Position numbers and translations under genes: made by a program. From positions 1 to 41,988 of IMG/VR virus record IMGVR_UViG_3300011335_000320: a stretch of DNA of 41,988 bases; one strand, written 5' to 3'. A model generated the notes under the pieces. It worked only from the letters and a program-made list of their open reading frames with translations. It ran no database searches and was not told the origin of the DNA. Below are positions 13,401 to 31,453 of the stretch, one piece after another. Every line of letters begins with the position of its first letter. Positions within the stretch are counted from its first letter, which is position 1. The stretch is from a virus (lineage: Duplodnaviria > Caudoviricetes).

Positions 13401-16171
13401 CCGTGTCTCGTGCTGGAGATGCTCTGCAAACCAAAGATGTTAACGAAGCAATTCAAAACGTTGTTCAGGCTGTAAGCAATGCCGAAGGGTTTGATAAAGT
13501 TATAGCCGGTGCAAAAGCTGTAATAGAAAACCCACTGGCTTTAAACGTTGTAGCTGTTGAGGCGTTGCAAGAAGCTTTGCCAATTGGTATGGCAGTCTCC
13601 GTTATAAAAACAGCAGGCAAGGCTGCTGCGGTAGGTGTTGATGTTGGTTTAAACGCATTAGAGTCTGGTGGAGCTGCGTACAACGACACATTACGCAAAT
13701 CCCTTGCAGGTAATAAAACCCTAGAAGAAGCCGACAACTCAGCTACGACATCGTTTGAAATAGCTGCGGCTGTTACAACTGTAACTCAAGGTCTTGTAGA
13801 TACTGCGGCGGTTAAGAAAATTAGCGACGCACTTGAAAAAGTTGCCACAAAAACAGCAACCAATTACACAAAAGAAGGTAGCAGTGAGTTTCTGGAAACC
13901 CTAACAACTGGCATTATTACCAGCGCAGCTCAAGGCAATCCTCTTGATCTTAATGACGAGCTTACAAAAGCTATTATTGCCGCTGGTGTGGCTGGCAAAA
14001 CCGCAACGGCGGTTAATGCATCTGGCGTACAAACTGCGGTAATATCAACCCCCAGCGTTGCCAACGCAGTTAATGAAGCTCAAACAACATTAAAAGAAGA
14101 ATTAAATAAGGTTGGCATTAAATCAAGTGACGACAGCGGCCAATTAACTTCGTTAGTTGACACCAAAACTGGCAACTCTTTAATTCAACAAGATGTTGCT
14201 CAAAATCTAACAAACGCAGGCTTAACTGAACAGCCTACGCCTACTCTAGAAGAAGTTGTTGCAACACCAGAGGTTGTCACACCCGCAGAAACCCCTGCTG
14301 AAGTGGTTACAGAAAACACTGGCCAAGTTGTTGCCGCAGATCCTGACACCGGAACCGCATTGGTAATAGATAACTCTGGTCAAACGCAAGTTATTAGCGT
14401 TCCAGAGGGTACAGAAGTTGGCTCAACAGTTAATTTACCTGAAGTTCAAGCGCCCGTAGAGTCTGTAGACACAACGCCGCCACAACCAGTTGTTACAGAA
14501 ATCACTCCAGAAGTTACTCCGGAAGTTATTCCAACGGTTACACCAGAGGCTACTCCAGAAGTCACTCCAACAGTTACCCCAGAAGTTACCCCAGAATTTG
14601 CTCCAACAGTTATTCCAGAGAATACCGGCACGGTAGTATCATCTGATCCAGAGTCTGGTACAGCATTAATTGTAGATAATTCCGGTGCGGTACAGGTGGT
14701 TAATGTTGAAACTCCTGTTGAGCAGGGATCTCAAGTTACTCTTAACACCGATGCAACTACTGGCGCAGTTTCAGTGGCCCCCGTTCCAGAAACTACCACT
14801 GAAGCCATTGCTTCACCAAGCACTGGTGTTGTTATTGCCACCGATCCAGAAACTAATACTGCGTTAGTTTTAAACAATGCCGGTGAAGCTCAAGTCGTGT
14901 CTGTAACTCCTGACACTAATGTTGGATCAACTGTTAATTTAAACACGGATACAGATACTGGGACAGTCATTGCTTCACCAGTTACACCAAAGACTGCTCC
15001 AGAAACAACGCCAATCATAGAAACGGTTACACCAGAAGTTACAACGCCCACCACAACTCCAGAGGTGGTTTCAAACGAAAATACAGGCATTGTTTTAGCA
15101 ACAGATCCAGAAACTAATACAGCATTGGTTATAAACAATACTGGTGAAGCTCAAATAGTTAATGTTGAAGGTAACCCTGATGTTGGCTCAACCGTAAACA
15201 TTAACGCTAGTCCAGACACAGGAGTGGTGGTTGCTACGCCCGTGGATACCACGCCTGTAGTGGAGGCCGTTGCTACGCCAGAGGTGGTCGCAACTCCTGC
15301 TGTTACTGAAAGTCCGGCTGTTGATGCTATTTTGAATGCTGAACAACAAGCTACTCCTGAAGTTGTTACCACTCCTGTGGTCAACCCTGAAATAACAACA
15401 AGCCCAGAGGTAGTGACCAGTCCAGAAGTAAGCCCTGAGGTTGTCACGACACCTGAAATAGCGGTTAACCCAGAGGTGGTTACCACCCCCGTTGTCAATC
15501 CTGAAATTACAACTAATCCAGAAATTATTACAACTCCAGCTGTTAACCCTGAAGTAGTGACAAATCCCGCCATTAATCCGGAGGTGGTGACCGACCCAAC
15601 GGTAAACCCGGAAGTTGTGACTACCCCCACGGTTAACCCAGATGTCAACACAACGCCGGTTGTTACTCCAGATGTTAATGTTTCTACTCCTGACATCATC
15701 AATGTAGAAGGTGTAGACATACCCGGTGTTTACACGCCACCAGAAGTTATTCCGCCAGCCGTTACTCCGCCGGTGGTGCAGCCGCCTGTGACACCGCCGG
15801 TAACTCAACCGCCAGTCACTCAGCCACCTAAAACGCAGCCTAAACAGCCTACGTCAGTGCCAAGCTTTGGTGCTCCCGCGACAGGTGGTGGAATGTCCAT
15901 TCCTGAGTTGGCTAGTGTTTTTTACTATGGCAAGAATTTTGGTGGGCAACAGCAGAAGCTTTCGCCAACTGGTGAACTGATGATGAGTCCGTATCAAGAG
16001 TTAAGCGTGGTCAAAGCTGGCGCAGAGCCAGAGTTGCCAGCAATTCCTGTTGCGCAAGAAGCAAAACCAGAGGAAAATGACATATCGGCGTTAATACAAC
16101 AAATCATGTCTTCGGGAGACAATAACATGACCACCGAAGAATTAATGCGAATTATTCAAGCAAGAGGTTGA
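10439..16171 (+). CDS. Giant low-complexity repeat protein (1,910 aa), putative internal virion/ejection protein
   Basis: Uninterrupted ORF with PVYTP, AAETQRL, 42-aa beta and VNPEVVTTP repeats. Confidence 0.75.
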   Translation: MAVTNKQIFDFLVNNPNISDAELAAVMDAYGVSPEQVAQATGTSEVAARERYEAVAPPPEPVYTAPAPVYEPVYEPVYETPVYTPPATNAYFQANPDVAGAYAANSYGMSADDFASFHYNNYGKNEGRYSPSGEPPPRAVVEPPPAPVYTPPLPPPEPVYTPKPVYTPEPVYTPEPVYQPAYEPPPEPVYTPPPAPTYTSYETESGTVYEPVYTPPAPIAQAPVATPSVIDTITAGPPTTVEELIAITEPPKASEPSAVEKLTQQILAQGTTSQWKGEGFGSAEKNAADMAKILADTGITDISQFGKVTKTVDAAVQPVYGQGDLVTDNEGQTFYSQKIIGYVDQTGKPVDPSLVKQDTVYSAGGEGGNAETFYTAPVGTKEVFGNKTTGQTVASTYGERQTGNAFGGTYAGDGNTGYRVQFDAQGNPTFYTTQASSSDIGDLAPILAVASFIPALAPFAQAINAAIAIDRGDVLGGIASLAGVGGMSEVATGLKVVKAIEDSNAMGIVGALLSDPDLGKLASNTMIADGISFADAGKTLKIVNDLNNNNLLGAASTAADLSGSADAKTAAAGLNLVNAIKSEDPTKIAAAAGGFSNTVNATTNVVKQLEDAGLVDQSVRNIAQDTSSSITADGDIAKLPETNLNNILDGSFVTEQQGQDNVASVDTAVVAQPPVDTVAQAPVSTPSVIDEITSGPSTTAEELLSTVTQSPVSTPDTSTQVQTPEKDEFTGVDAAVAAQAEAPAKQTSFNDAYAAARLAYGPNANFTWNGKQYSTASAAERPDLSTAVKPATDESAAETQRLLNQSNALVTANAPNQSAAETQRLANQNKEAFLNTTAENVNKSPSSDYWAGTDGADALGNLLGTAQQENPIVQQNLAETQRLANQNAEAALNSPSFTTPVDQTAAESKRLFEQNNALGLAKAQQDADAAVKAITSVFGEDTQLSTTVQQGLANIHQAAGGILETLGGSASALGLTGPVNTLTNAGQAVSRAGDALQTKDVNEAIQNVVQAVSNAEGFDKVIAGAKAVIENPLALNVVAVEALQEALPIGMAVSVIKTAGKAAAVGVDVGLNALESGGAAYNDTLRKSLAGNKTLEEADNSATTSFEIAAAVTTVTQGLVDTAAVKKISDALEKVATKTATNYTKEGSSEFLETLTTGIITSAAQGNPLDLNDELTKAIIAAGVAGKTATAVNASGVQTAVISTPSVANAVNEAQTTLKEELNKVGIKSSDDSGQLTSLVDTKTGNSLIQQDVAQNLTNAGLTEQPTPTLEEVVATPEVVTPAETPAEVVTENTGQVVAADPDTGTALVIDNSGQTQVISVPEGTEVGSTVNLPEVQAPVESVDTTPPQPVVTEITPEVTPEVIPTVTPEATPEVTPTVTPEVTPEFAPTVIPENTGTVVSSDPESGTALIVDNSGAVQVVNVETPVEQGSQVTLNTDATTGAVSVAPVPETTTEAIASPSTGVVIATDPETNTALVLNNAGEAQVVSVTPDTNVGSTVNLNTDTDTGTVIASPVTPKTAPETTPIIETVTPEVTTPTTTPEVVSNENTGIVLATDPETNTALVINNTGEAQIVNVEGNPDVGSTVNINASPDTGVVVATPVDTTPVVEAVATPEVVATPAVTESPAVDAILNAEQQATPEVVTTPVVNPEITTSPEVVTSPEVSPEVVTTPEIAVNPEVVTTPVVNPEITTNPEIITTPAVNPEVVTNPAINPEVVTDPTVNPEVVTTPTVNPDVNTTPVVTPDVNVSTPDIINVEGVDIPGVYTPPEVIPPAVTPPVVQPPVTPPVTQPPVTQPPKTQPKQPTSVPSFGAPATGGGMSIPELASVFYYGKNFGGQQQKLSPTGELMMSPYQELSVVKAGAEPELPAIPVAQEAKPEENDISALIQQIMSSGDNNMTTEELMRIIQARG

Positions 16172-19607: not shown

Positions 19608-22600
19608 ATGGCACTGTACAGAATTACTGCCCCTGATGGCCGCACGTATGAAGTTGAAGGCCCAGCGGGGGCAACTCAGCGCCAAGTAGAAGCTGAATTG
19701 CTTCGTCAAAATCCTATGGCGGGAAGAACCACCAAGGAATTAGAAGAAACAAAAAGCGCACCAAGCACCATTAAAGACATTGGCCTTGGTGGGTTGGGAG
19801 CATTAGCCGGTGGTGTACAGACACTTGCCAACATTGCTGGCGTAGATAACCCAGTCTCCAAAGGCTTGGGGTCTATACAACAGTACGCACAGGAAAACCT
19901 CAGCCCTGCTCGTCAGGAAGAGTTAGCCATTCAAAGTGAGCTTGAAAACCGTGCTCAAGGCACGGGCTTAGGCAATGAAGTGGGCACTGGCATACGTAGG
20001 TTCACACAGGCTCCTGTGCAAGGTACTATCAACGCCTTGCTAGGTAGCGCACCCATCATTGCTGCGGGTTTAATTCCCGGTGGTCAAGCTGCGGCAGGCG
20101 CAAGCCTTGGTGCGCGGCTGCTTGCGGGCGCACGTGGAGCCACTGGTATTGGCGGCCTTATGGGTGTTGGTGGTCAAAAAGGCCAAGACTATGAGGCAGT
20201 TAAACAGGCGTTACTAGACAAAGGTGTTGACCCAGCAATTGCCGAACAAAGAGCGCAAGAAGCCGCCGCCTATTCATTGCAAAATACTCCACGTCAACTT
20301 CTCGCGGGTGGTGCTGGTGCAATGGAGGGCATGTTTGGTGTTGAGCAAGCCTTGGCTAATGCTGCTAAGAAAGTTGGCGCAGCTAAAGGCGTATCATCGC
20401 TGGATGCTCCAACGTTTAAACGGGCTGTTGGAACTTCTGTGCTGGGTGAAGGCGTGCCCGAAGCAATTCAAGCGGGCGTTGGTCAAATTGGAACCAACGT
20501 AGCTTTAAACCAGTCAGGCATTAGCACTGACCTCACTGAAGGTTTGGCCGGTACGGTTGCACACGATGCATTGGTTGGCTCAGTCTTAGGCCTTGCTGTT
20601 TCTCCAGTGCAGATGTCTAATTTGCAACGTGAATACAAACAATCACAAGCCAATGAACAAGCTAAGAAACAGGCTGAAGCTGATGCAAAAGTACAAGCTG
20701 AGACACAAAAGGCAGAAGCCGAGCGTGCTGTTCTTCAGAAACAGACCGATGACATTCGCCAAAAAATGGAGCAACAGCAAGCTATTGCTTTGCCTGCGCC
20801 GTCTGAGGAAATGCCCGTTGAAGAAGTACAGGCCGATCCGCTCAAGAATCCTCTAGGAAACATTCGTAAGAACGAAGTACCCTTTGACATCTACAAACAG
20901 ATCGATGAATACCGCAAGCAAGCTGGCCTTCCCAAGCTCAAGGAGTACTCGATTGAGGACTTTGTGGATGCTATGCCGGGAACCAACCCTAAGGCAGAGC
21001 AAGGCCTGTTAGATGAACTCATTACAGCCAAGTCAGGCTATACCAATGAAAAGTACACCGCACAGGACATCCTAAACCAAGCCAAGCTAAAGAACGTAGA
21101 CACCACCACTAAAGGTTTTAAAGACTTCTTAGCCAGAACTACTGGTGCAAACGCACTGGAACAGATGTCCCAGCCGCAGCTACATGCTGCGTTTAAATCA
21201 TTAAACAGCCTGCCCGTATCGGAAGGTTTAAACATCCTGCCCGAAGGCACGAACGCACGCCGGTTTGATGAGAAGCAATACGATCGCGCCATCAAGGGCG
21301 TGGACATGTTGCTCAATGAGTTGGGCGCTCCTGTCGATCCTTTAGAGATCATCAAGACCATCAAGGAATACACGAACCTTACAGAAGACTCCCATGCCGG
21401 AGCTATTCTAGATACAGCCATTAAGAATGGTGACGTTGACCTGATCAAGACTCCTCGCTATGAGATCTATGATCCCAAGACTGGCGCTGTTATGCCGTCT
21501 ACCTACACATCTAGGACTGCTGCCCGCGCTGCGGCGGCCAAGCGTGGTTTAAACGTTAGGCAGATCACAACTGATGCCATTGCTGCGCCCTCCACCTCGG
21601 TGACGCTGCCCGAAGGATTTGACATCCGCGAAGGTGCGTTTAAAGAGGGTGAGGCTCCCGCAGGTTACGAACTGTATGCCGGTGACACGCTGCTTTCTAA
21701 AGTCAACACCGTAGACGAAGCCAACGCCAAGAAGGCAAGTTTTGAGCGCACTCGCGCCGGTGCAGCAATGCGTTTTGAAAATCAAATTAAACAGTTAAAC
21801 AATTCTATTGAAGCTGGTCAAAAGCGTTTAGACAGCAGTGAAGCTAAGGGCGAAGGCCAGTCAACCAACTTCCAAAAGGCGGCTGGCCGTCAAGCTAAAT
21901 TAGTTGCAGAAACGCAGGCAAAAATTGCCGCCCTAACAGAACAGATTCAAAAGCTTGACCCCAAGGTTACGCCTATCGAAGTTAAACCAACCGCCAATAA
22001 GGCCATTGGCCGTAAGGGCTACACGGTGTTTGAACAGGCTCAGGCAAGGGCTACCTACCCATCCCGTCGGGCTGCTGAAGAAAGCATCCTGTCCGAGATG
22101 TCTGACAAGCAATTGCAAGAGTTGGCTCAACAGCAAGGCCGTCGGGCTATCGGTAAGAAAGCTCAGGCTGAACTAGAACGCAGAACTCCCAAGGCTCCGA
22201 CTGCGGCTGAAGCTAAACGCTTTGCCGAGCAGAAGCCTGTCTCTGAAGTCTTGGAAGGTATTGAAACCGAAGCCAAAGCCCAGAAGGCTAAAGCTGAGGC
22301 GGCCAAGGAAACACCCGGCCTTAAAGAGAAGATGGCGGCTGTCGAGGCAGAACTTAAGCCTTTGCTAAAACAATTCGGACTTGGTGGTGTCAAACTCAAC
22401 TTTGTCGAGAAGATGGATCAAGAAGGCTCTTACAACGAGAGTCTGATTACCCTTGCTTTGTCAGAGAAAGAGCCAGTGCGCATTTTGCGTCATGAGTCTT
22501 TGCACGCCCTGAAGGATTTAAACTTCTTTACACCTCAGCAGTGGACTGCGCTTGAGCGCATGGCTAAGGATCAGTGGATTGACAAGTATCTAAAGAAGAA

Positions 22601-25600
22601 GGCTACCGAGTACAAGGGTCAGCCAATGTCTCGCTATGACGCTTATGTTGACCTCTACAACGGTGACATGGCTAAGGTTACCGAAGAAGCCATCGCTGAT
22701 GCGTTTGCTGACTTTGCCAATAACAAACCGCCAGCAGGAATGCTGGCTGCACTGCTCAAACGTTTAAACGACTTTTTTACTGCGCTGCGTAATGCTTTGA
22801 ACGGAGCTGGCTTCCAGACTGCTGAAGATGTATTTGGCAAGATTGAGCGTGGTGAGCTGGCGCAAAACCCAAGCTCATGGAAAGCTACGGCTGAAGTCAA
22901 AGATGATGCAACCAAGTACTCCATGGAGTTTGGCATTGATCCGTACACCTCCGAAGGCCAGATCAACGTGCCATTGGATGGCGATAACAAACGCTTCTCA
23001 ATTAAGCAACCCTATGACCAGAAGAAGCTGGACAAGGACGAAACATTAAAGAACGACCCAATTACAGGTCTGCCTTTAAACGCTAACGGCACAGTGACGT
23101 TGTACTACCCAACGACCAACGAGTTGGCTAGGGATCTTGCTGAAACCCGCAAGCTCAAGGGCCACTCGCCTACAGCCAACCGTATTTACCTGACCAACGA
23201 GTCTAGTTCTGCTGCGATCACCAACAAGCCCGGCATGATTGACCAGCCTGTAGGTGGTGCAAACGTATTGCTCCAAGTGGATCCATCTGTGATCCATTTG
23301 TTAGAAGAGCACTCAGATGGCCGAAAAGACTTCTTCATCCCAATCGCAGAAGGTAAGGCGTTTGAGAAGAAGATGGCTCAGACCAAGCTGTTTACACTCA
23401 ATGCGCCGCGTACCAAAGGCCTGCACCCTGACCGCACCTTGAAGCAAGTCACGACCGCAGTGAACGATGCAGCCACTAAGTGGGCTAACTCTTCTGCGGC
23501 AGATCGTCGCATCATGGCGCGTAATGCCAAAGATGTCCTCCGCGCAGAACACAACATTAGCCGCCTGTTTGGTGCTAACTCCAAGTTAGAGAAGACCAAC
23601 ATTGGCGAGTACGGCCTGACATACAACGGCAAGAAGGTCATGTCTACAGGACTTGGCTTTGCGTCTGCTCAGAAGATCAACGATGAGCAACGTGCTACTA
23701 CGTGCCCTCAGTCAGGCATCTGCGAGGACTTGTGCCTTGGAGAAACCTCCGGACAAAACTTGCTGTATGGTGGCGAAGGTCAGTGGCGCTCCGGCCCACG
23801 CCTATCTCAGTACTTAAAGACTGAGGCTCTAGTGGTAAACCCTGAGGCGTTTGCCATTGCAATGATTAAGCAGATTGAGTCATTCCGTAAGGCAGCACGA
23901 GATTTGGATTACCACCCTGCTATTCGTTTAAACGTTACCTCTGACTTTAATCCTGCTACGTTTGAGAACATCATCAACATGTTCCCTGACGTGACTTTCT
24001 ACGACTACACAAAACTTGATACCAAGCCAATAGCTCCTAACCATCACTTGACCTATAGCTCAACTGGTGCATCTCAGGTTGTTGGCAACAAGACAATCTT
24101 TAACAAGTTCTCTAACTGGGATCGCATGGTAGACAAGATTTTGCCTAGCGGTCGCAACGTGGCTATGGCTTTTACAAGCCGTTCAGCCATGCCTAAGTTT
24201 GTCAAAGATGAGCGCACTGGCAAGACGTTTGAAGTGTGGAACGGTGATGAGTACGATGCACGATTCCTTGATCCTGTTCATGAGAGCGGTGACGGCTGGA
24301 TCATTGGCCTGACCAATAAGGACAACACCACTAAGCCTGAGGATGCGGCGGCAAAGCATAACGGCTTCTTCCTTGACTACGACCCCCAGCGTGATGGCGA
24401 TACATTGGTTATCCCCAATCAGGAAAAGCTCAAGGCCGATCAAGGCCAGCCTGTTAAGTTTACCAAGCAGGCTCGCGCTAGTTTACGTGCTGCGCCAGAA
24501 ACGCCTGAGTTTAAACAGTGGTTTAGCGGCAGCAAGGTGGTAGATGAAGATGGTAAACCTCTTGTTGTTTATCATGGCTCACCAGATTTCAAAGGTAATG
24601 AATTTACCGGCAAGGTTGAGCGTAAGAACAGGGCGGGTAACGTAGGGGGTTATTACTTCACTCCATACGCAGACGAAGCATCTGACTATGCCGCAGACAG
24701 AAAGACCAGACAATACCAAGAAGGTTCACAAGTCCTTCCTGTGTATTTAAACATCAAACGGCCTTACATTGCTGGTGAAAGCCGTGTTACTCCCGCCATG
24801 AAGGATGCGTATCTCAAAGAGATGATTGCATCTAATCAGCACATGAGTGATGAGCGTGCGGCAGAATGGGCTAAAAATAAAGTCCCGTTCTTTACTGATG
24901 GCAGATTGCCTAGCGCTGATGCTTTAAACGGTGATGGCGCTGCCATGCAGCGGATCTTAAAGGCTGGTGGCTACGATGGCTTTAAAGACGGCAGACATTG
25001 GGTTGCTTTTGAATCCTCACAGATTAAATCTTCTATCGGCAACGTAGGTACATATGGAAGCGGCAACCCCGATATTCGTTACAGCCTACGTCAAGCCCCT
25101 GATACGCCTGAGTTCCAAGAATGGTTTGGTGACAGCAAGATTGTGGATGCAAAAGGTAAGCCATTAGTTGTTAGCCACATCTCCAAGGCCGAACCCACTG
25201 TCTTTGACAACAAGTACAAAACCGACTTGTCCAGCATGGGCTTTCATTTTGGAACCAAAGAACAGGCTCAATTTAGGGCTACTCAGTACGACTTTGAATC
25301 AAGTTCACCAACGATGGGCGACTACTACCTGTCGATCCAAAACCCGTTGGAAGTCAGTCACATGGCATCTTTTGCGCCAGACCATCTGGCAGATCAGATG
25401 ATGGATATGGACTTAATCACCGAGCAGAAGTACGAATCATTTAGAAACAAGTACCGCGACGAGCCAGATATTGGTGCGGCCCTTGTTAAGATTCTTCAAA
25501 AAGCCGGTTATGACGGGCTTGTTTACAGCAATGAAATGGAAGGCAAAGGCAATTCGTATGTGCCATTTGAGCCAACTCAAATAAAATCTGCTACAGACAA

Positions 25601-28193
25601 CACTGGCGCATACAGCAAGTACAACCCTGACGTTCGCTACAGCCTGCGTGATTCAACTGACCCGGCCATTGTTAAACGTGTAAACGAGACAACGACTACC
25701 CGCGAAGAGAAGGGTTATGCTGATCGCATTACTCAAGCTTTGAGCGGTGACTCATTCTCTGAACTGCGTGCTCAAGCCCTAAACCGCTACAACCGACTGT
25801 CCGATGTGGATAAGGCTGTTGTTAAGAAGCGTGGTGGCGCGGCCTTGATGGCTGATGAAAGCGCAGAAGCTGGAGCCTTGCAGTCTGACTTGGCCGCAGG
25901 CGTTACCGCATCTGTGTTGGGCGTGCATGACCGCAACGGCGGTATCCCTATCTACGTCAATGGCGTGACCAAAGCCTTCAACGACAAGGGCAAGATCAAA
26001 GGCCCGGTGGCTATCTTTGCACCGTTGTCAAAATACAACGATCCTTATATCTACCAGCTCTATCAGTTCTGGGGAGGCGTTAAGCGTGGTTCTCGTTTAA
26101 ACGCAGAAGGCAGGCCAGACATCTTTACCGAGGATGACGTTAAAAGAGCGGCAGCTTTGGAAAAGCAATACCCTGAATTTGTTCAAATCCAAAAAGAATG
26201 GACAACGTTTAACAATGGATTGATGCAGTACCTAGTGGACACAGGCGTATTGTCTGAAGGCGATCGCGCTAAGTTCACTGAGCATTCTGACTACATCCCG
26301 TTCTATCGTCAGATGGAAGGCGAGAAGACTATTGGCCCCAACATCTTCCAGTCCATCTCTGGTGTCAAGAAGCCTAAGAAGCTTAAGAAGGGCGAAGACA
26401 AAGCACCGCTGGCTGACTTCCTAGAAACCGTTGTGCGCAACACGCAGTCTTCTATTCAAATGGGTATGAAGAACGTGGCGGCGCAACGTGCCATTGACCG
26501 AGCCATGGAAATTGAGATGGCCGAGCGTTTACGCCCCAATGCTCCCACGGGATTGGACACTGTGCAGGTACTAGAAAAAGGTCAGGTCGTTACCTATCAG
26601 GTGGCTGATCACCTGTTCATTAACGCTGTTAAGAGTTTAAACATGCCTGACCTGCCGTTTATTGGCATTTTGTCCGGCCCAGCTAACCTTTTGCGGAACA
26701 TGGTGACCAAGGATCCCGGCTTCATGTTGGCTAACATGGTTCGAGATTCAATGGCGGCATACGTAACTAGCGGAGTTAAGATGACTCCGATGGTTGACAC
26801 AGTCAGTAACTTTGGCAAGGCCATGGCCGGTACGTCACCAGAGTTTGAAGCGCTTTTAAACGCTGGTATTGGTGGCGGATACGAGTTCTCTCAGAACATT
26901 GAGACAAGCGCTAAGGCGTTTGAAAAAGAACTGAAGAAGAAATACGAGGGCAAGTCTTTATTCCAACGTATTCTTAATCCCATGAGCGCACCCACAGCTT
27001 TGTGGGAAGCTTTAGAAAAAGGTACAACTGCGTCTGATATGGCGACAAGGATGGAGGTGTATAAACGCACCCTAGCCGAAACCAAGAACGAGGCAGAAGC
27101 TCTGCACCGTGCGCTTGAGGTGATGAACTTTAACCGCAAGGGTAGCTCTCCTGTTATCCGTGTACTGACAGCGGCCATCCCATTCTTAAACGCCCGTATG
27201 CAGGGTCTGGATGTGCTGTATAGAGCGTCGTTTGGCGAGATGAATAACAAAGATGCCGCCATGATTCAGAAACGTTTCATTGTCCGTGGCCTGACTATGG
27301 CCGCTCTATCAGCCATGTACTGGACTTTGACTCATGATGATGAAGAATACAAGAAGCAAGAACAGGAAACCAAGGACAACAACTGGCTGATCCCATCCTT
27401 GGGCATCAAAATCCCAATCCCGTTTGAGATTGGTGTGATCTTCAAAGTCATACCTGAGCGGATCATGGCTCTAACGCTAGGCCAAGATACAAACAAAGAC
27501 TTCATGGACTCCATGGCTAGGAATCTGCGTTCAACACTGGCGATTGACTACTTACCGCAAGCCATCAAGCCTTTCGTGGAGACAGAGACTAACTTCTCCC
27601 TGTTTACACGCAGACCTATTGTTGGCCAAGGCTTAGAAGGAGTTGCCCCGGAGTTCCAAGTCGGCCCCGGAACTTCATCCGTTGCCGCCGCTTTGGGTTC
27701 TAACTTGGGCATGTCGCCCATGAAGATTGACCATTTGATCAATGGCTACACGGGCACGATGGGTATGTACATGGTCAGCGCCTTGGATGGCATCATGAAC
27801 ATGAATGCCGAGAACCCCAATGCGTCTAAACGCTTTGAGCAGTTGCCATTCATCAAACGATTTGCGTTGGATCCAGAGGCCAGAGGTACGGTCACTGGCT
27901 ACTACGATCTAAAGAACGCCACAGATGAGGTGGTCAGAACCTCTAGCTTGCTTGAGCGCACGATGAACTTTCAAGAGCGTGGCAAGTTCATGCAAGAGAA
28001 CATTAAGTTGCTTGCCAACAAGGACTACATCCTTGACCTAGAGAAGACCATGAAAGAGTTCCGTCAGGCTCAGGTCATGATCCGTAGCTCTAAGATGGAT
28101 GCCGATGCCAAACGGGATGCTCTCCTGAGAATCAATCAAGCTCAGAACGCCATCACCGCTAACATCAACATCCTTAGAGCTAACATAATGTAA
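19608..28193 (+). CDS. Large polyvalent (injected) protein, 2,861 aa: zincin-like HExxH domain, Gp88-like Cys-cluster domain, two ART-PolyVal-like domains, LPD38-like C-terminus
   Basis: HESLH at 22491-22505; CPQSGICEDLC, IRLNVTSD and FYDYTK; two copies of TPEFxxWFxxSKxVDxxGKPLVVxH...GYDG...QIKS; IPFLNARMQG and IPIPFEIG. Confidence 0.75.
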   Translation: MALYRITAPDGRTYEVEGPAGATQRQVEAELLRQNPMAGRTTKELEETKSAPSTIKDIGLGGLGALAGGVQTLANIAGVDNPVSKGLGSIQQYAQENLSPARQEELAIQSELENRAQGTGLGNEVGTGIRRFTQAPVQGTINALLGSAPIIAAGLIPGGQAAAGASLGARLLAGARGATGIGGLMGVGGQKGQDYEAVKQALLDKGVDPAIAEQRAQEAAAYSLQNTPRQLLAGGAGAMEGMFGVEQALANAAKKVGAAKGVSSLDAPTFKRAVGTSVLGEGVPEAIQAGVGQIGTNVALNQSGISTDLTEGLAGTVAHDALVGSVLGLAVSPVQMSNLQREYKQSQANEQAKKQAEADAKVQAETQKAEAERAVLQKQTDDIRQKMEQQQAIALPAPSEEMPVEEVQADPLKNPLGNIRKNEVPFDIYKQIDEYRKQAGLPKLKEYSIEDFVDAMPGTNPKAEQGLLDELITAKSGYTNEKYTAQDILNQAKLKNVDTTTKGFKDFLARTTGANALEQMSQPQLHAAFKSLNSLPVSEGLNILPEGTNARRFDEKQYDRAIKGVDMLLNELGAPVDPLEIIKTIKEYTNLTEDSHAGAILDTAIKNGDVDLIKTPRYEIYDPKTGAVMPSTYTSRTAARAAAAKRGLNVRQITTDAIAAPSTSVTLPEGFDIREGAFKEGEAPAGYELYAGDTLLSKVNTVDEANAKKASFERTRAGAAMRFENQIKQLNNSIEAGQKRLDSSEAKGEGQSTNFQKAAGRQAKLVAETQAKIAALTEQIQKLDPKVTPIEVKPTANKAIGRKGYTVFEQAQARATYPSRRAAEESILSEMSDKQLQELAQQQGRRAIGKKAQAELERRTPKAPTAAEAKRFAEQKPVSEVLEGIETEAKAQKAKAEAAKETPGLKEKMAAVEAELKPLLKQFGLGGVKLNFVEKMDQEGSYNESLITLALSEKEPVRILRHESLHALKDLNFFTPQQWTALERMAKDQWIDKYLKKKATEYKGQPMSRYDAYVDLYNGDMAKVTEEAIADAFADFANNKPPAGMLAALLKRLNDFFTALRNALNGAGFQTAEDVFGKIERGELAQNPSSWKATAEVKDDATKYSMEFGIDPYTSEGQINVPLDGDNKRFSIKQPYDQKKLDKDETLKNDPITGLPLNANGTVTLYYPTTNELARDLAETRKLKGHSPTANRIYLTNESSSAAITNKPGMIDQPVGGANVLLQVDPSVIHLLEEHSDGRKDFFIPIAEGKAFEKKMAQTKLFTLNAPRTKGLHPDRTLKQVTTAVNDAATKWANSSAADRRIMARNAKDVLRAEHNISRLFGANSKLEKTNIGEYGLTYNGKKVMSTGLGFASAQKINDEQRATTCPQSGICEDLCLGETSGQNLLYGGEGQWRSGPRLSQYLKTEALVVNPEAFAIAMIKQIESFRKAARDLDYHPAIRLNVTSDFNPATFENIINMFPDVTFYDYTKLDTKPIAPNHHLTYSSTGASQVVGNKTIFNKFSNWDRMVDKILPSGRNVAMAFTSRSAMPKFVKDERTGKTFEVWNGDEYDARFLDPVHESGDGWIIGLTNKDNTTKPEDAAAKHNGFFLDYDPQRDGDTLVIPNQEKLKADQGQPVKFTKQARASLRAAPETPEFKQWFSGSKVVDEDGKPLVVYHGSPDFKGNEFTGKVERKNRAGNVGGYYFTPYADEASDYAADRKTRQYQEGSQVLPVYLNIKRPYIAGESRVTPAMKDAYLKEMIASNQHMSDERAAEWAKNKVPFFTDGRLPSADALNGDGAAMQRILKAGGYDGFKDGRHWVAFESSQIKSSIGNVGTYGSGNPDIRYSLRQAPDTPEFQEWFGDSKIVDAKGKPLVVSHISKAEPTVFDNKYKTDLSSMGFHFGTKEQAQFRATQYDFESSSPTMGDYYLSIQNPLEVSHMASFAPDHLADQMMDMDLITEQKYESFRNKYRDEPDIGAALVKILQKAGYDGLVYSNEMEGKGNSYVPFEPTQIKSATDNTGAYSKYNPDVRYSLRDSTDPAIVKRVNETTTTREEKGYADRITQALSGDSFSELRAQALNRYNRLSDVDKAVVKKRGGAALMADESAEAGALQSDLAAGVTASVLGVHDRNGGIPIYVNGVTKAFNDKGKIKGPVAIFAPLSKYNDPYIYQLYQFWGGVKRGSRLNAEGRPDIFTEDDVKRAAALEKQYPEFVQIQKEWTTFNNGLMQYLVDTGVLSEGDRAKFTEHSDYIPFYRQMEGEKTIGPNIFQSISGVKKPKKLKKGEDKAPLADFLETVVRNTQSSIQMGMKNVAAQRAIDRAMEIEMAERLRPNAPTGLDTVQVLEKGQVVTYQVADHLFINAVKSLNMPDLPFIGILSGPANLLRNMVTKDPGFMLANMVRDSMAAYVTSGVKMTPMVDTVSNFGKAMAGTSPEFEALLNAGIGGGYEFSQNIETSAKAFEKELKKKYEGKSLFQRILNPMSAPTALWEALEKGTTASDMATRMEVYKRTLAETKNEAEALHRALEVMNFNRKGSSPVIRVLTAAIPFLNARMQGLDVLYRASFGEMNNKDAAMIQKRFIVRGLTMAALSAMYWTLTHDDEEYKKQEQETKDNNWLIPSLGIKIPIPFEIGVIFKVIPERIMALTLGQDTNKDFMDSMARNLRSTLAIDYLPQAIKPFVETETNFSLFTRRPIVGQGLEGVAPEFQVGPGTSSVAAALGSNLGMSPMKIDHLINGYTGTMGMYMVSALDGIMNMNAENPNASKRFEQLPFIKRFALDPEARGTVTGYYDLKNATDEVVRTSSLLERTMNFQERGKFMQENIKLLANKDYILDLEKTMKEFRQAQVMIRSSKMDADAKRDALLRINQAQNAITANINILRANIM

Positions 28194-29520: not shown

Positions 29521-29669
29521 GGCTTATCCTTCAGTAGTGCCTCAAGATTATCTAACGCCTTGTCCCAACGGTCATAGTCCAACTCGTTGGTAAAAGCTTT
29601 TACCAAAGCTTGTGCAGATTTTTCTACACGCTCAAGGTACTCCATCCGTTTTTTTTCTTCGTCTGTCAT
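29517..29669 (-). CDS. 50-aa hypothetical protein
   Basis: Hand-translated as MTDEEKKRMEYLERVEKSAQ...; GGAGG Shine-Dalgarno and ATGA overlaps at both ends. Confidence 0.55.
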   Translation of the reverse strand: MTDEEKKRMEYLERVEKSAQALVKAFTNELDYDRWDKALDNLEALLKDKP

Positions 29670-30121
29670 GCACGGGCCTCCTCTGCATTACTAGCACGTT
29701 GCCTCAAGCTTTCATCTAATTGAACAATTAAATCTGCGATGTCTGAGTCAACTAGGTGCAACTTCTTAGTCCAACGGGCGATAGTCAACTGAAGGTCGTG
29801 GACAAACTCCTCTTTCATTGAAACGCTTGTCATTACATCAGCAACCATCCTGTAGCCACCACCCGTTTCACGGTCTGATGGCAGGCTTACAAATGCCCGT
29901 ACATGTGTTGGCTCATCTGACAACACAGTGATTCGACATCTTTGGATCAGGGTTCTAGCCTGTTCCCTGCGGTATTGAACAGCCGCCTCTGAGTCATCCC
30001 ATTCAAAATGACTGTGCAGAATACTGCCTTCGTTTTGAGCCTCTTTGATAACGTCATCAATCATCAGCACCCCGCCATTGCGACGTGCCATCTTCTCTAA
30101 CAGTTTTCTTTCTTCGTTCAT
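29666..30121 (-). CDS. Conserved phage protein directly downstream of the GGY-NN array; candidate accessory protein of the RAMP/array system
   Basis: AAGGAG Shine-Dalgarno; motif LHSHFEWDDSEAAVQYRREQARTLI...VRAFVS...GYR. Confidence 0.7.
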   Translation of the reverse strand: MNEERKLLEKMARRNGGVLMIDDVIKEAQNEGSILHSHFEWDDSEAAVQYRREQARTLIQRCRITVLSDEPTHVRAFVSLPSDRETGGGYRMVADVMTSVSMKEEFVHDLQLTIARWTKKLHLVDSDIADLIVQLDESLRQRASNAEEARA

Positions 30122-30149
30122 AGTTTCTCCTTAGTGTTTAAACATAAAT

Positions 30150-30778
30150 GCCTGCTTTACCATGCCCAACCGATCCTTGCCGATACGAGCCGCTCCATGC
30201 CTGCCATACTGCGCCACGCTGCTCCGAGCCAAGCCCATCCTAGCCACGCCTGCCCTGCCCTACCACGCTATGCCTAGCCGAGCCATGCCTGCCTCTCTAC
30301 TCCAAGCCACGCCGTGCCTCGCCTAGCCTTGCCTGCCTCACCGTGCTTCGCCCAGCCTCGCCTCTCCAAGCCTGCCGTACAGAGCCTTACCAGTCCTCGC
30401 CCTTCCACGCCTTGCCTCCCGTACCAAACCTGCCCATACCTTGCCATGCCTAGCCTTGCCATGCCTGCCAAACCTAACTCCGCCGTGCCCCACTTTTCCC
30501 GGCCATGCCTGTCCATACCTGCTATGCCTAGCCATGCCTCACCTCACAGTGCCTCGCCTTGCCTTGCCTGCCTCACCAAACCTGTCCCGAACAGACCTGT
30601 CCACGACGCACCTCTCCGCGCCTGCTACGCCAAACCCAGCCCGACCGCACCGCGCCATGCCACTCTGATCCCCGCCTGCCATACCAAACCAAGCCGTAAC
30701 GAACCTCGCCGCGCCTAGCCTGCCGTGCCGGAATGAGCCTCTCCGTACCAAGCCGAGCCGCTCCTAGCCCAGCCTTCC
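30150..30778 (-). ncRNA. Array of 13 putative guide-RNA units made of GGY-NN pentamers (VIPR-like guide array)
   Basis: Parsed by hand. There are 14 delimiters (GGCAGGC or close variants) at + positions 30150, 30199, 30248, 30287, 30331, 30370, 30414, 30463, 30517, 30566, 30620, 30674, 30718 and 30772. Spacings are 49,49,39,44,39,44,49,54,49,54,54,44,54, all of the form 5n+4, giving 114 pentamers. The repeat structure is directly visible; RNA function is inferred. Confidence 0.8.
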
Positions 30779-30790
30779 TTGGTTTAAACG

Positions 30791-31453
30791 TTACTCAATG
30801 CCAAACTTAGCTTTGATTGCGTTTTCTCGGTCACTCTCTACAACTTGAAACAAACCGAACCCACATCCGGCACTAGCCTTACTGTCGGGTCTGCCTGCTC
30901 CAATCCCTACTTGCAAGCCACAACGGCTAATCAAGTTAATTACATCCACAGTTTTAAACTGATCCATGTCAAAACGAATACGCAGTTTGACTGCCCACTC
31001 CTTGTACATAGGGCGTGAACGCACATCTACTACGCCCGTAGCATTACGGGTGTGTGCCGTATAGGTGTCGCTCTTGCCGTAGACCCGAACAAGTGGAATT
31101 CCATCCTGTTGATCCCAACCATCAGCTTCCACAAAGGTGGATAGCTTTGCAAGCGTCATCTTGAATCCAACTAAACGACACGCAGAAATCATCGCAGCAC
31201 GAAACGATGCAGCGTTTACACCTTCCCAGCCCTGCATACTGCGGTAACGTGCATCCTCTGCTTCCTTCTCGTAGTCCCGTGCATCACGAACCTTTTTACT
31301 GCCTGCTGATTTGCCCTCTTGCATCTTTGCCATCAGTTCTGCTTTCTTGCTGAACCGTTCAACTACTAGCGGTGCAATGCCCTCTAGGTAAACGTCCACA
31401 GTTGCAAACTTTGGTGGGGAAATAACGTATGTTGTTTCAATTTCTTTAGCCAT
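30791..31453 (-). CDS. Stand-alone RAMP/Cas7-like RNA-binding protein (Vipr-like)
   Basis: RAMP hallmarks: first strand VDVYLEGIAPLVV, GVNAASFRAAMISA (compare the IPGSSLKGALR motif), and a C-terminal glycine-rich loop GLQVGIGAGRP...GCGFGLFQV. Confidence 0.75.
   Translation of the reverse strand: MAKEIETTYVISPPKFATVDVYLEGIAPLVVERFSKKAELMAKMQEGKSAGSKKVRDARDYEKEAEDARYRSMQGWEGVNAASFRAAMISACRLVGFKMTLAKLSTFVEADGWDQQDGIPLVRVYGKSDTYTAHTRNATGVVDVRSRPMYKEWAVKLRIRFDMDQFKTVDVINLISRCGLQVGIGAGRPDSKASAGCGFGLFQVVESDRENAIKAKFGIE

Follow-up and report, generated by a model that had tools for sequence, protein, structure and literature searches.

Thirteen tandem units on the minus strand of this phage genome very probably encode 13 abutting guide RNAs, which would direct a filament of the RAMP-like protein Vipr to bind and silence integrase genes of mobile elements. 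A Vipr-like gene precedes the array, a conserved partner gene follows it, and the variable dinucleotides (NN) of several units match integrase genes of other mobile elements when one base is skipped after each pair, so that it is likely to be a guide array. At two letters per codon, at least three of the 13 guides (U1, U3 and U12) read as conserved integrase motifs belonging to such elements. VIPR is a CRISPR-related DNA silencer published in 2026 (bioRxiv 10.64898/2026.04.26.720920), and the assignment of the array to VIPR with a staggered architecture, not to type II, is well supported. The window, by which we mean the whole stretch of DNA analysed (41,988 nt), is the whole 42-kb virus record, and its relevant features are the following.

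30148..30778, minus strand: predicted staggered vrRNA array of 13 guides with 7-10 GGY/NN pentamers each; a 4-nt (G/A)GCA break opens each guide, and AGCAGGCAT closes the array.
30791..31453, minus strand: vipr, coding for a 220-aa RAMP-like protein, the predicted subunit of an RNA-guided DNA-binding filament (profile match, glycine loop, AF2 model, phrog_4652).
29666..30121, minus strand: candidate vap, 151 aa, mostly helical, directly 3' of the array (phrog_15946; AF2 pLDDT 89.7).
30725..30778, minus strand: U1, putative guide against the region of the catalytic tyrosine (HTVGDSVKEAYQRTD) in a family of P4-type integrases found on PICI-like elements.
30681..30724, minus strand: U2, member of a family directed against integrase motif NKVEAAYRR, with a single mismatch in the window copy (13/14 core).
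30627..30680, minus strand: U3, putative guide against integrase motif KTKHRAAITDP.
30470..30523, minus strand: U6, with a small ORF of one U1-type element as a weak candidate target (window copy 16/18, a relative's copy 18/18).
30255..30293, minus strand: U11, 7 pentamers, retained close to the 3' end in many related arrays.
30206..30254, minus strand: U12, matching motif GHKPSATAEKHYT in a different family of tyrosine integrases (16/16 when the last NN is left off).

Read on the minus strand, starting at 30778 and ending at 30157, the array parses into 13 units with 114 pentamers, every unit being 5n+4 nt long (from U1 to U13: 54, 44, 54, 54, 49, 54, 49, 44, 39, 44, 39, 49 and 49 nt), and a terminal AGCA-GGC-AT follows U13 at 30156-30148. 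These 13 abutting units of 5n+4 nt constitute the staggered architecture. A preliminary description of the locus had listed 13 units, 114 pentamers and 13 NN strings, with which our re-parse agrees exactly, and had predicted a period of 5 with variable NN positions. Autocorrelation of the array is 0.48-0.49 at lags 5, 10 and 15 and 0.48-0.52 at lags 39, 44, 49 and 54, against 0.24-0.30 at the same seven lags in two flanking controls, so that the period is present (about 0.49 versus about 0.26 in the flanks); no comparable GG periodicity was found anywhere else in the window. Entropy over the five pentamer positions is 0.52, 0.26, 1.47, 1.87 and 1.92 bits (114 pentamers), the last two, and most variable, being the NN. 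The triplets are GGC in 60 cases, GGT in 22, GGA in 16 and others in 16, GGY thus making up 82 of 114. Two breaks are odd in the window: GGAA in U1 (position 30776) reads GGCA in contigs from 4 of 4 public DNA runs, and GGGA in U8 (position 30418) reads GGCA in 3 of 4, the fourth being without coverage. A promoter scan found 4 candidates against 8.5 expected, none of them informative. The palindrome GTTTAAAC occurs at 30782-30789 and at 30136-30143, on either side of the array, and its copies pair in the predicted fold; array flanks resembling TTAAAC or TTAAC are seen in many relatives, though not in all.

A repetitive region of this kind could be degenerate satellite DNA or low-complexity coding sequence, whose matches to integrases would arise by chance. 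The longest NN run common to two units is 3, and the NN autocorrelation exceeds that of shuffles at only one of the 7 lags tested (lag 10, p=0.04, uncorrected); this near-shuffle level indicates that the NNs are not copies of neighbouring pentamers. No open frame runs through the array, all six frames containing stops, and array length modulo 3 splits evenly, 30/29/26, among 85 loci. The lack of NN duplication and the stops in all frames argue against that explanation, and bear out the earlier statements that the array is not slippage-derived satellite DNA and that the region is noncoding.

The only PDB match of a 92-sequence profile of the 220-aa protein was SUSP1 Vipr (36pp; E 3e-7), with an alignment spanning the thumb to the G-loop, and SUSP1 Vipr was also the best match of a single-sequence PDB search (E 0.0047). 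The protein has an invariant glycine loop (G179/G183/G187/R188/G196/G200); its R147 and R188 align with SUSP1 R138 and R179, and A186 and G187 stand at the positions of the SUSP1 G-loop residues D177 and W178. In SUSP1, mutation D177A abolishes silencing (10.64898/2026.04.26.720927), and the different residues here count against the assignment. The AF2 model (pLDDT 77.6, pTM 0.74) has a long beta hairpin at 120-162. No Pfam family was found for the protein, and an Atlas search with Vipr gave only matches at 0.85 or below. Together, these data are consistent with a stand-alone RAMP homolog (Vipr) with a glycine-rich loop and a thumb. Homologs numbered 5089 among 5223 candidates, and representatives at 50% clustering 2063. 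Vipr is matched as well by 30 Mycobacterium and Gordonia phage records, and in Cyanophage Cy-LDV1 (L463 2501-3933) a 51%-identical homolog adjoins a putative excisionase, and a gap of 224 nt separates the homolog from the hypothetical gene that comes next.

The array begins 13 nt past the 220-aa ORF (30791-31453) and stops 27 nt before the 151-aa ORF (29666-30121), whose product has no Pfam, PDB or named Atlas match. The order vipr-array-partner is kept in 84 of 85 related loci other than the window, the exception (L013) being truncated, and this fixed gene context also speaks against the satellite explanation. The window thus holds the elements of a minimal VIPR locus, a vipr gene, one accessory gene and noncoding repeats, in a phage. 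Its other genes include virion, endolysin, Sak, PD-(D/E)XK, RusA and primase-helicase genes; an integrase-profile search of 738 window frames gave no match, and no cas genes were found among the proteins scanned. The window also codes for a 2861-aa polyvalent protein (19608-28193) with two copies of ART-PolyVal and with GP88 and LPD38 domains, and for a 1910-aa ORF with coding tandem repeats of 12, 18 and 30 nt at 14496-14619 and 15497-15639.

When the NN strings were reverse-complemented and read as codon positions 1 and 2, those of U2, U3 and U12 gave peptides that we took to be integrase-like; these three units were picked for scanning after that recognition, and were then tested by collection scans. 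The target rule applied was NN, one skipped base, NN (10.64898/2026.04.26.720920), a decoding rule that is absent from the preliminary description and already published.

Among the metagenome matches listed for the 9-NN pattern of the U1 family (about 180 overall), 99 of 119 fell in one integrase family. The full 20/20 match occurs at 32 sites, and the tenth NN, held out of the search, matches in 90 of the 99 integrase loci; furthermore, GC and GA variants of the guide family mirror Ala and Ser variants of the targets (61 and 37 of 99). The single match in the U1 viral scan lies in a polyvalent-like gene and is probably due to chance. None of 401 genomes from one Burkholderiales-related family contained the pattern, and a plasmid search gave only integrases less than 60% identical. 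Three U1-type loci, read fully, carry integrase, AlpA-like and RepB-primase- or helicase-like genes together with small proteins, and such elements adjoin host genes such as tctC and moaC. The label PICI-like is ours, assigned from the gene order in the loci read. Two of five AlpA-like genes score above the Pfam AlpA cut-off, and no tRNA insertion site was found in 35 loci. In one U1-type element next to moaC (L369 1163-2638), the integrase is interrupted by a second, XerC-like integrase, which is itself matched by another guide family.

For U3, 99 of the 121 loci among the matches listed are integrases, all matched in antisense and 98 with the skip at codon position 3; the GTDB scan took 120 of about 450 stretches. 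The window copy matches 20/20 in 3 loci, and the single viral match is a Pfam-confirmed P4-type integrase. For the U2 family pattern, 42 of 68 viral matches are integrases, and longer copies in relatives go on matching past the searched pattern (24/24 in L258 and 22/22 in L282). Eight of the 22 viral matches of U12 carry the GHKPSATAEKHYT motif, 5 of them confirmed by the integrase profile. Since the matches of U2, U3 and U12 are conserved motifs in unrelated hosts, they define motif classes and not the actual target elements. The earlier proposal that constant triplets with variable dinucleotides specify unique sites is supported.

The nine units U4-U11 and U13 had no convincing target in the pooled loci. 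The viral matches of U7 (25) and U6 (9) form no coherent gene family, and 5 of the 9 for U6 lie in one terminase-like gene, outside its wobble frame; matches of U9 (12/12) and U13 (15/16) to single U1-type loci are too short to call. The NN string of U11 is identical in 7 other loci and near-identical in many more, with Vipr identities of 82-100%; no target for it was found among 238 pooled loci, and it could be a structural or regulatory unit. No self-targets were found under skips 0-3, the best one-skip self-match reaching at most 12/14 or 15/18, and 402 guides compared with 1.06 Mb of flanking DNA from related phages showed no excess of matches, whichever skip was used. The predicted targets lie on competing mobile elements, without self-targets.

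Held-out guide families follow the same code. A first test, with 92 ORFs, gave a weak result: 6 families matched, and shuffles had a mean of 2.45 and a maximum of 6. When 244 non-anchor families were compared with 139 integrase ORFs, 7 matched with at most one mismatch, all in antisense and in wobble phase, against a mean of 0.1 and a maximum of 1 in 40 shuffles and 0-1 for other skips or strands. Against 99 U1-type loci, 17 of 246 families from relatives matched with at most one mismatch, 9 of them perfectly; shuffles gave 0.8 and 0.05, and other skips at most 1 and 0, respectively. Perfect 8-NN cores were found in the 238 pooled loci for 14 of 150 families at skip 1 and for none at skips 0, 2 or 3, in a test that includes the anchor families and in which 10 shuffles gave 0-1. 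These matches are thus described by a code in which one base is skipped, the one at the wobble position of the codon. Conserved integrase motifs are abundant, so that some gapped patterns will match, and most units are without a target, as a chance origin would have it; enrichment of held-out families only at skip 1 and in wobble phase contradicts chance, and we give the satellite explanation practically no credence.

In all, 18 families are integrase-directed, 4 of them anchors and 14 held out (three integrase families, mis-assigned by the longest-ORF rule in the pooled test, were assigned from the 139-ORF and U1-type-loci tests), and at least one such family is present in 73 of 86 loci. All 18 match in antisense, that is, they are complementary to the mRNA, as expected if the guides acted on integrase mRNA and not on DNA. 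At least four families, however, match other genes of the same elements in sense orientation and codon phase: an AlpA-like gene, an HGGxSTGP small protein, a primase-like ORF and a 125-aa ORF. The sense matches to the AlpA-like, HGGxSTGP and primase-like genes argue for DNA as the target; they are seen although the integrase and AlpA-like genes share direction in L334. A global test of conservative (synonymous) NN swaps, a point against the guide-array reading as a whole, lent the antisense orientation no support (90 swaps, p=0.47). Since published VIPR binds double-stranded DNA on either strand (10.64898/2026.04.26.720920), we regard action on RNA as very unlikely and retain DNA silencing.

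The position of an NN within its unit bears on where guides would end. In the 18 families, which were selected on internal NNs only, the first NN matches the target in 15 and the last in 4, and last NNs are skewed to AA, AC and AT (229 of 376). The sequence NGCA stands at 841 of 855 parsed breaks, with a parser that rewards GGCA and a unit-splitting procedure from which the 5n+4 length partly follows. Both observations lend indirect support to the boundary role given to GGCA in the preliminary description, and the mismatching last NN fits a short constant 3' end at what may be the GGCA boundary. It is also conceivable, with targeting unchanged, that Vipr loads one long uncut transcript on which the GGCA phase shift only ends and starts filaments. 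The predicted RNA fold of the array is no better than that of shuffles (z -0.73), Rfam searches of the window and 7 loci found no match, ribozymes included, and no nuclease has been identified in the locus; this absence of a structured tail, ribozyme and nuclease would suit an uncut array, as would the published RNA-seq confirmation, which covers ribozyme and single-guide arrays and not staggered ones (10.64898/2026.04.26.720920). Nevertheless, the legend of fig. S18 in that preprint speaks of 'individual processed vrRNAs' (10.64898/2026.04.26.720920), and the constancy of the break exceeds what a phase shift needs. An uncut array is accordingly the less probable option, and we consider it unlikely; processing into single guides is the reading we prefer.

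The scaffold may also be shaped by the host. The rarity of CC among the NNs had been ascribed to avoidance of pairing with GG; this does not hold in relatives, where CC makes up 4.1% of internal NNs and CA, CG and CT 3.9-4.1%. CCWGG is absent from the genome (0 against 73.5 expected, both strands counted), as is GGWCC (0 against 30.2, both strands counted), and related phages are depleted too (0.44 and 0.20 of expectation, respectively), which suggests host restriction systems for these sites. GGC before CA-GG or CT-GG occurs at 23 of 146 sites in relatives' guides, against 80.9 expected, and at 0 of 6 in the window. As the scaffold avoids CCWGG, restriction-site avoidance probably explains part of the triplet variation; no paper dealing with it in connection with Vipr or vrRNA was found in the literature. 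GGA makes up 74 of 662 triplets in guides with strong targets. Changes of GGY reportedly abolished silencing in SUSP1, and GGA is among the constructs in the legend of fig. S12 (10.64898/2026.04.26.720920).

Viral scans for relatives gave 17 loci and then 326, of which 80 were kept; the parsed set comprises these 80, 5 loci of the first scan and the window. The parsed arrays contain 555 distinct guides in 376 families. As the preliminary description had anticipated, whole units are gained or lost: L016, with an identical Vipr fragment, has U1-U7 in common with the window and 2 other units in place of U8-U13. L001, whose full-length Vipr is 99.5-100% identical, has only a U11-like unit in common with it. 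That description had named NN invariance among relatives as an observation at odds with its reading; such invariance exists for some units (U1, U7, U11) only, and it reflects conserved targets. Comparison of homologous guides in held-out halves (207 non-independent pairs) gives 0.20 differences per site for the third triplet base, against 0.07 and 0.10 for the NN letters; given this faster drift of the triplet base, selection appears to act on the NN. One contig of run X13 (depth 7) lacks 137 nt (30229-30365) between 7-nt repeats in U9 and U12, and its junction creates an in-register hybrid guide; 21 pairs of families, mostly U11 variants, are listed with only the 5' or the 3' half in common. 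Deletions, insertions and in-register recombination would seem to remodel the arrays without disturbing the order of the units. In Class 1 CRISPR, a Cas7 RAMP-type protein assembles on an array-derived guide, and units are gained and lost with their order kept. The array described here is similar in its RAMP-type protein and in the gain and loss of units with order kept (858 concordant against 49 discordant pairs among 67 distinct arrays), and differs in having no contiguous spacers, long repeats, cas genes or leader-end polarity, the shared fraction being 0.60-0.73 across all five position bins. In some relatives an atypical GGTG break splits one unit into 6+2 pentamers (L001 offsets 177-225; L002-L004 after vipr), and in L059, L065 and L094 the main array lies 200-300 nt past vipr instead of the usual 5-35 nt, something being inserted between the two.

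The closest published counterparts are the staggered VIPR arrays, which share with this locus a vipr gene with one vap, GGY/NN pentamers, and abutting guides with a one-base phase shift in which the end of one is the start of the next (10.64898/2026.04.26.720920). The text of that preprint names no boundary sequence, targets or type for them, which its figures and data files S1-S4, like this clade itself, may show (10.64898/2026.04.26.720920). In the present array (G/A)GCA forms the boundary, the number of pentamers per guide is 7-10, compared with a typical 9-16, and targets are mapped (10.64898/2026.04.26.720920). The type II system of SUSP1 (10.64898/2026.04.26.720920; 10.64898/2026.04.26.720927; PDB 36pp; 10.64898/2026.10.15.759431), has a homologous Vipr and the same one-base-skip code at codon position 3, and its guides hit the recombinase gene of a satellite. 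SUSP1 has four separate vrRNAs of about 100 nt with a pseudoknot tail of about 40 nt and is directed at F5 satellites, whereas the array here is tail-less, with 13 guides between vipr and vap, and its predicted targets are P4-type integrases on PICI-like elements. Furthermore, it uses GGA in 16 of 114 triplets, and A and G replace D177 and W178. The separate vrRNAs with structured 3' tails that define type II (SUSP1, P. fulva) were not found in the array, which has 4-nt breaks only.

The layout, the homology to SUSP1 Vipr, the one-skip matches with the skip at codon position 3 and the absence of both self-matches and a phage integrase come from the present analysis, and can be placed in a working scheme borrowed in part from the SUSP1 papers. 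The operon would be transcribed on the minus strand; each pentamer would be bound by one Vipr subunit with its GGY hidden, and the NNs would pair with double-stranded DNA; silencing of the integrase would then prevent the element from excising and exploiting the phage. Two further steps are suggested by the sequence itself: the transcript may be cut into single guides at or near GGCA, and the last pentamer plus GGCA may form a short 3' handle replacing the SUSP1 tail. For the phage, the likely use of the array is to confine satellite-like parasites to the host chromosome. A more extended reading is possible, and we offer it tentatively, as one that may well be wrong: this widespread phage clade could be a distinct tail-less VIPR branch in which the 4-nt GGCA alone sets guide ends, the cuts being made by Vipr, by the 151-aa partner or by a host RNase; in which the changed G-loop (A186/G187) accepts GGA and other triplets, the scaffold thus dodging host restriction sites; and in which arrays are a recombination-edited library saturating one PICI-like family at more than 10 sites.

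The 2026 preprints already describe VIPR, its skip code, staggered arrays and the targeting of recombinases. To these the locus adds computational evidence that a staggered array follows the published skip code, a dense target map on PICI-like integrases (the 18 guide families in 73 of 86 loci), a position rule by which the first NN is read and the last, as a rule, is not, and indications of an influence of restriction-site avoidance on the scaffold. Should processing at GGCA be confirmed, the compact, tail-less array of 13 guides would be a practical scaffold for multiplex silencing; and if the reading as a tail-less branch is true, the clade would provide a ready system for the study of vrRNA processing and of the origin of new guides.
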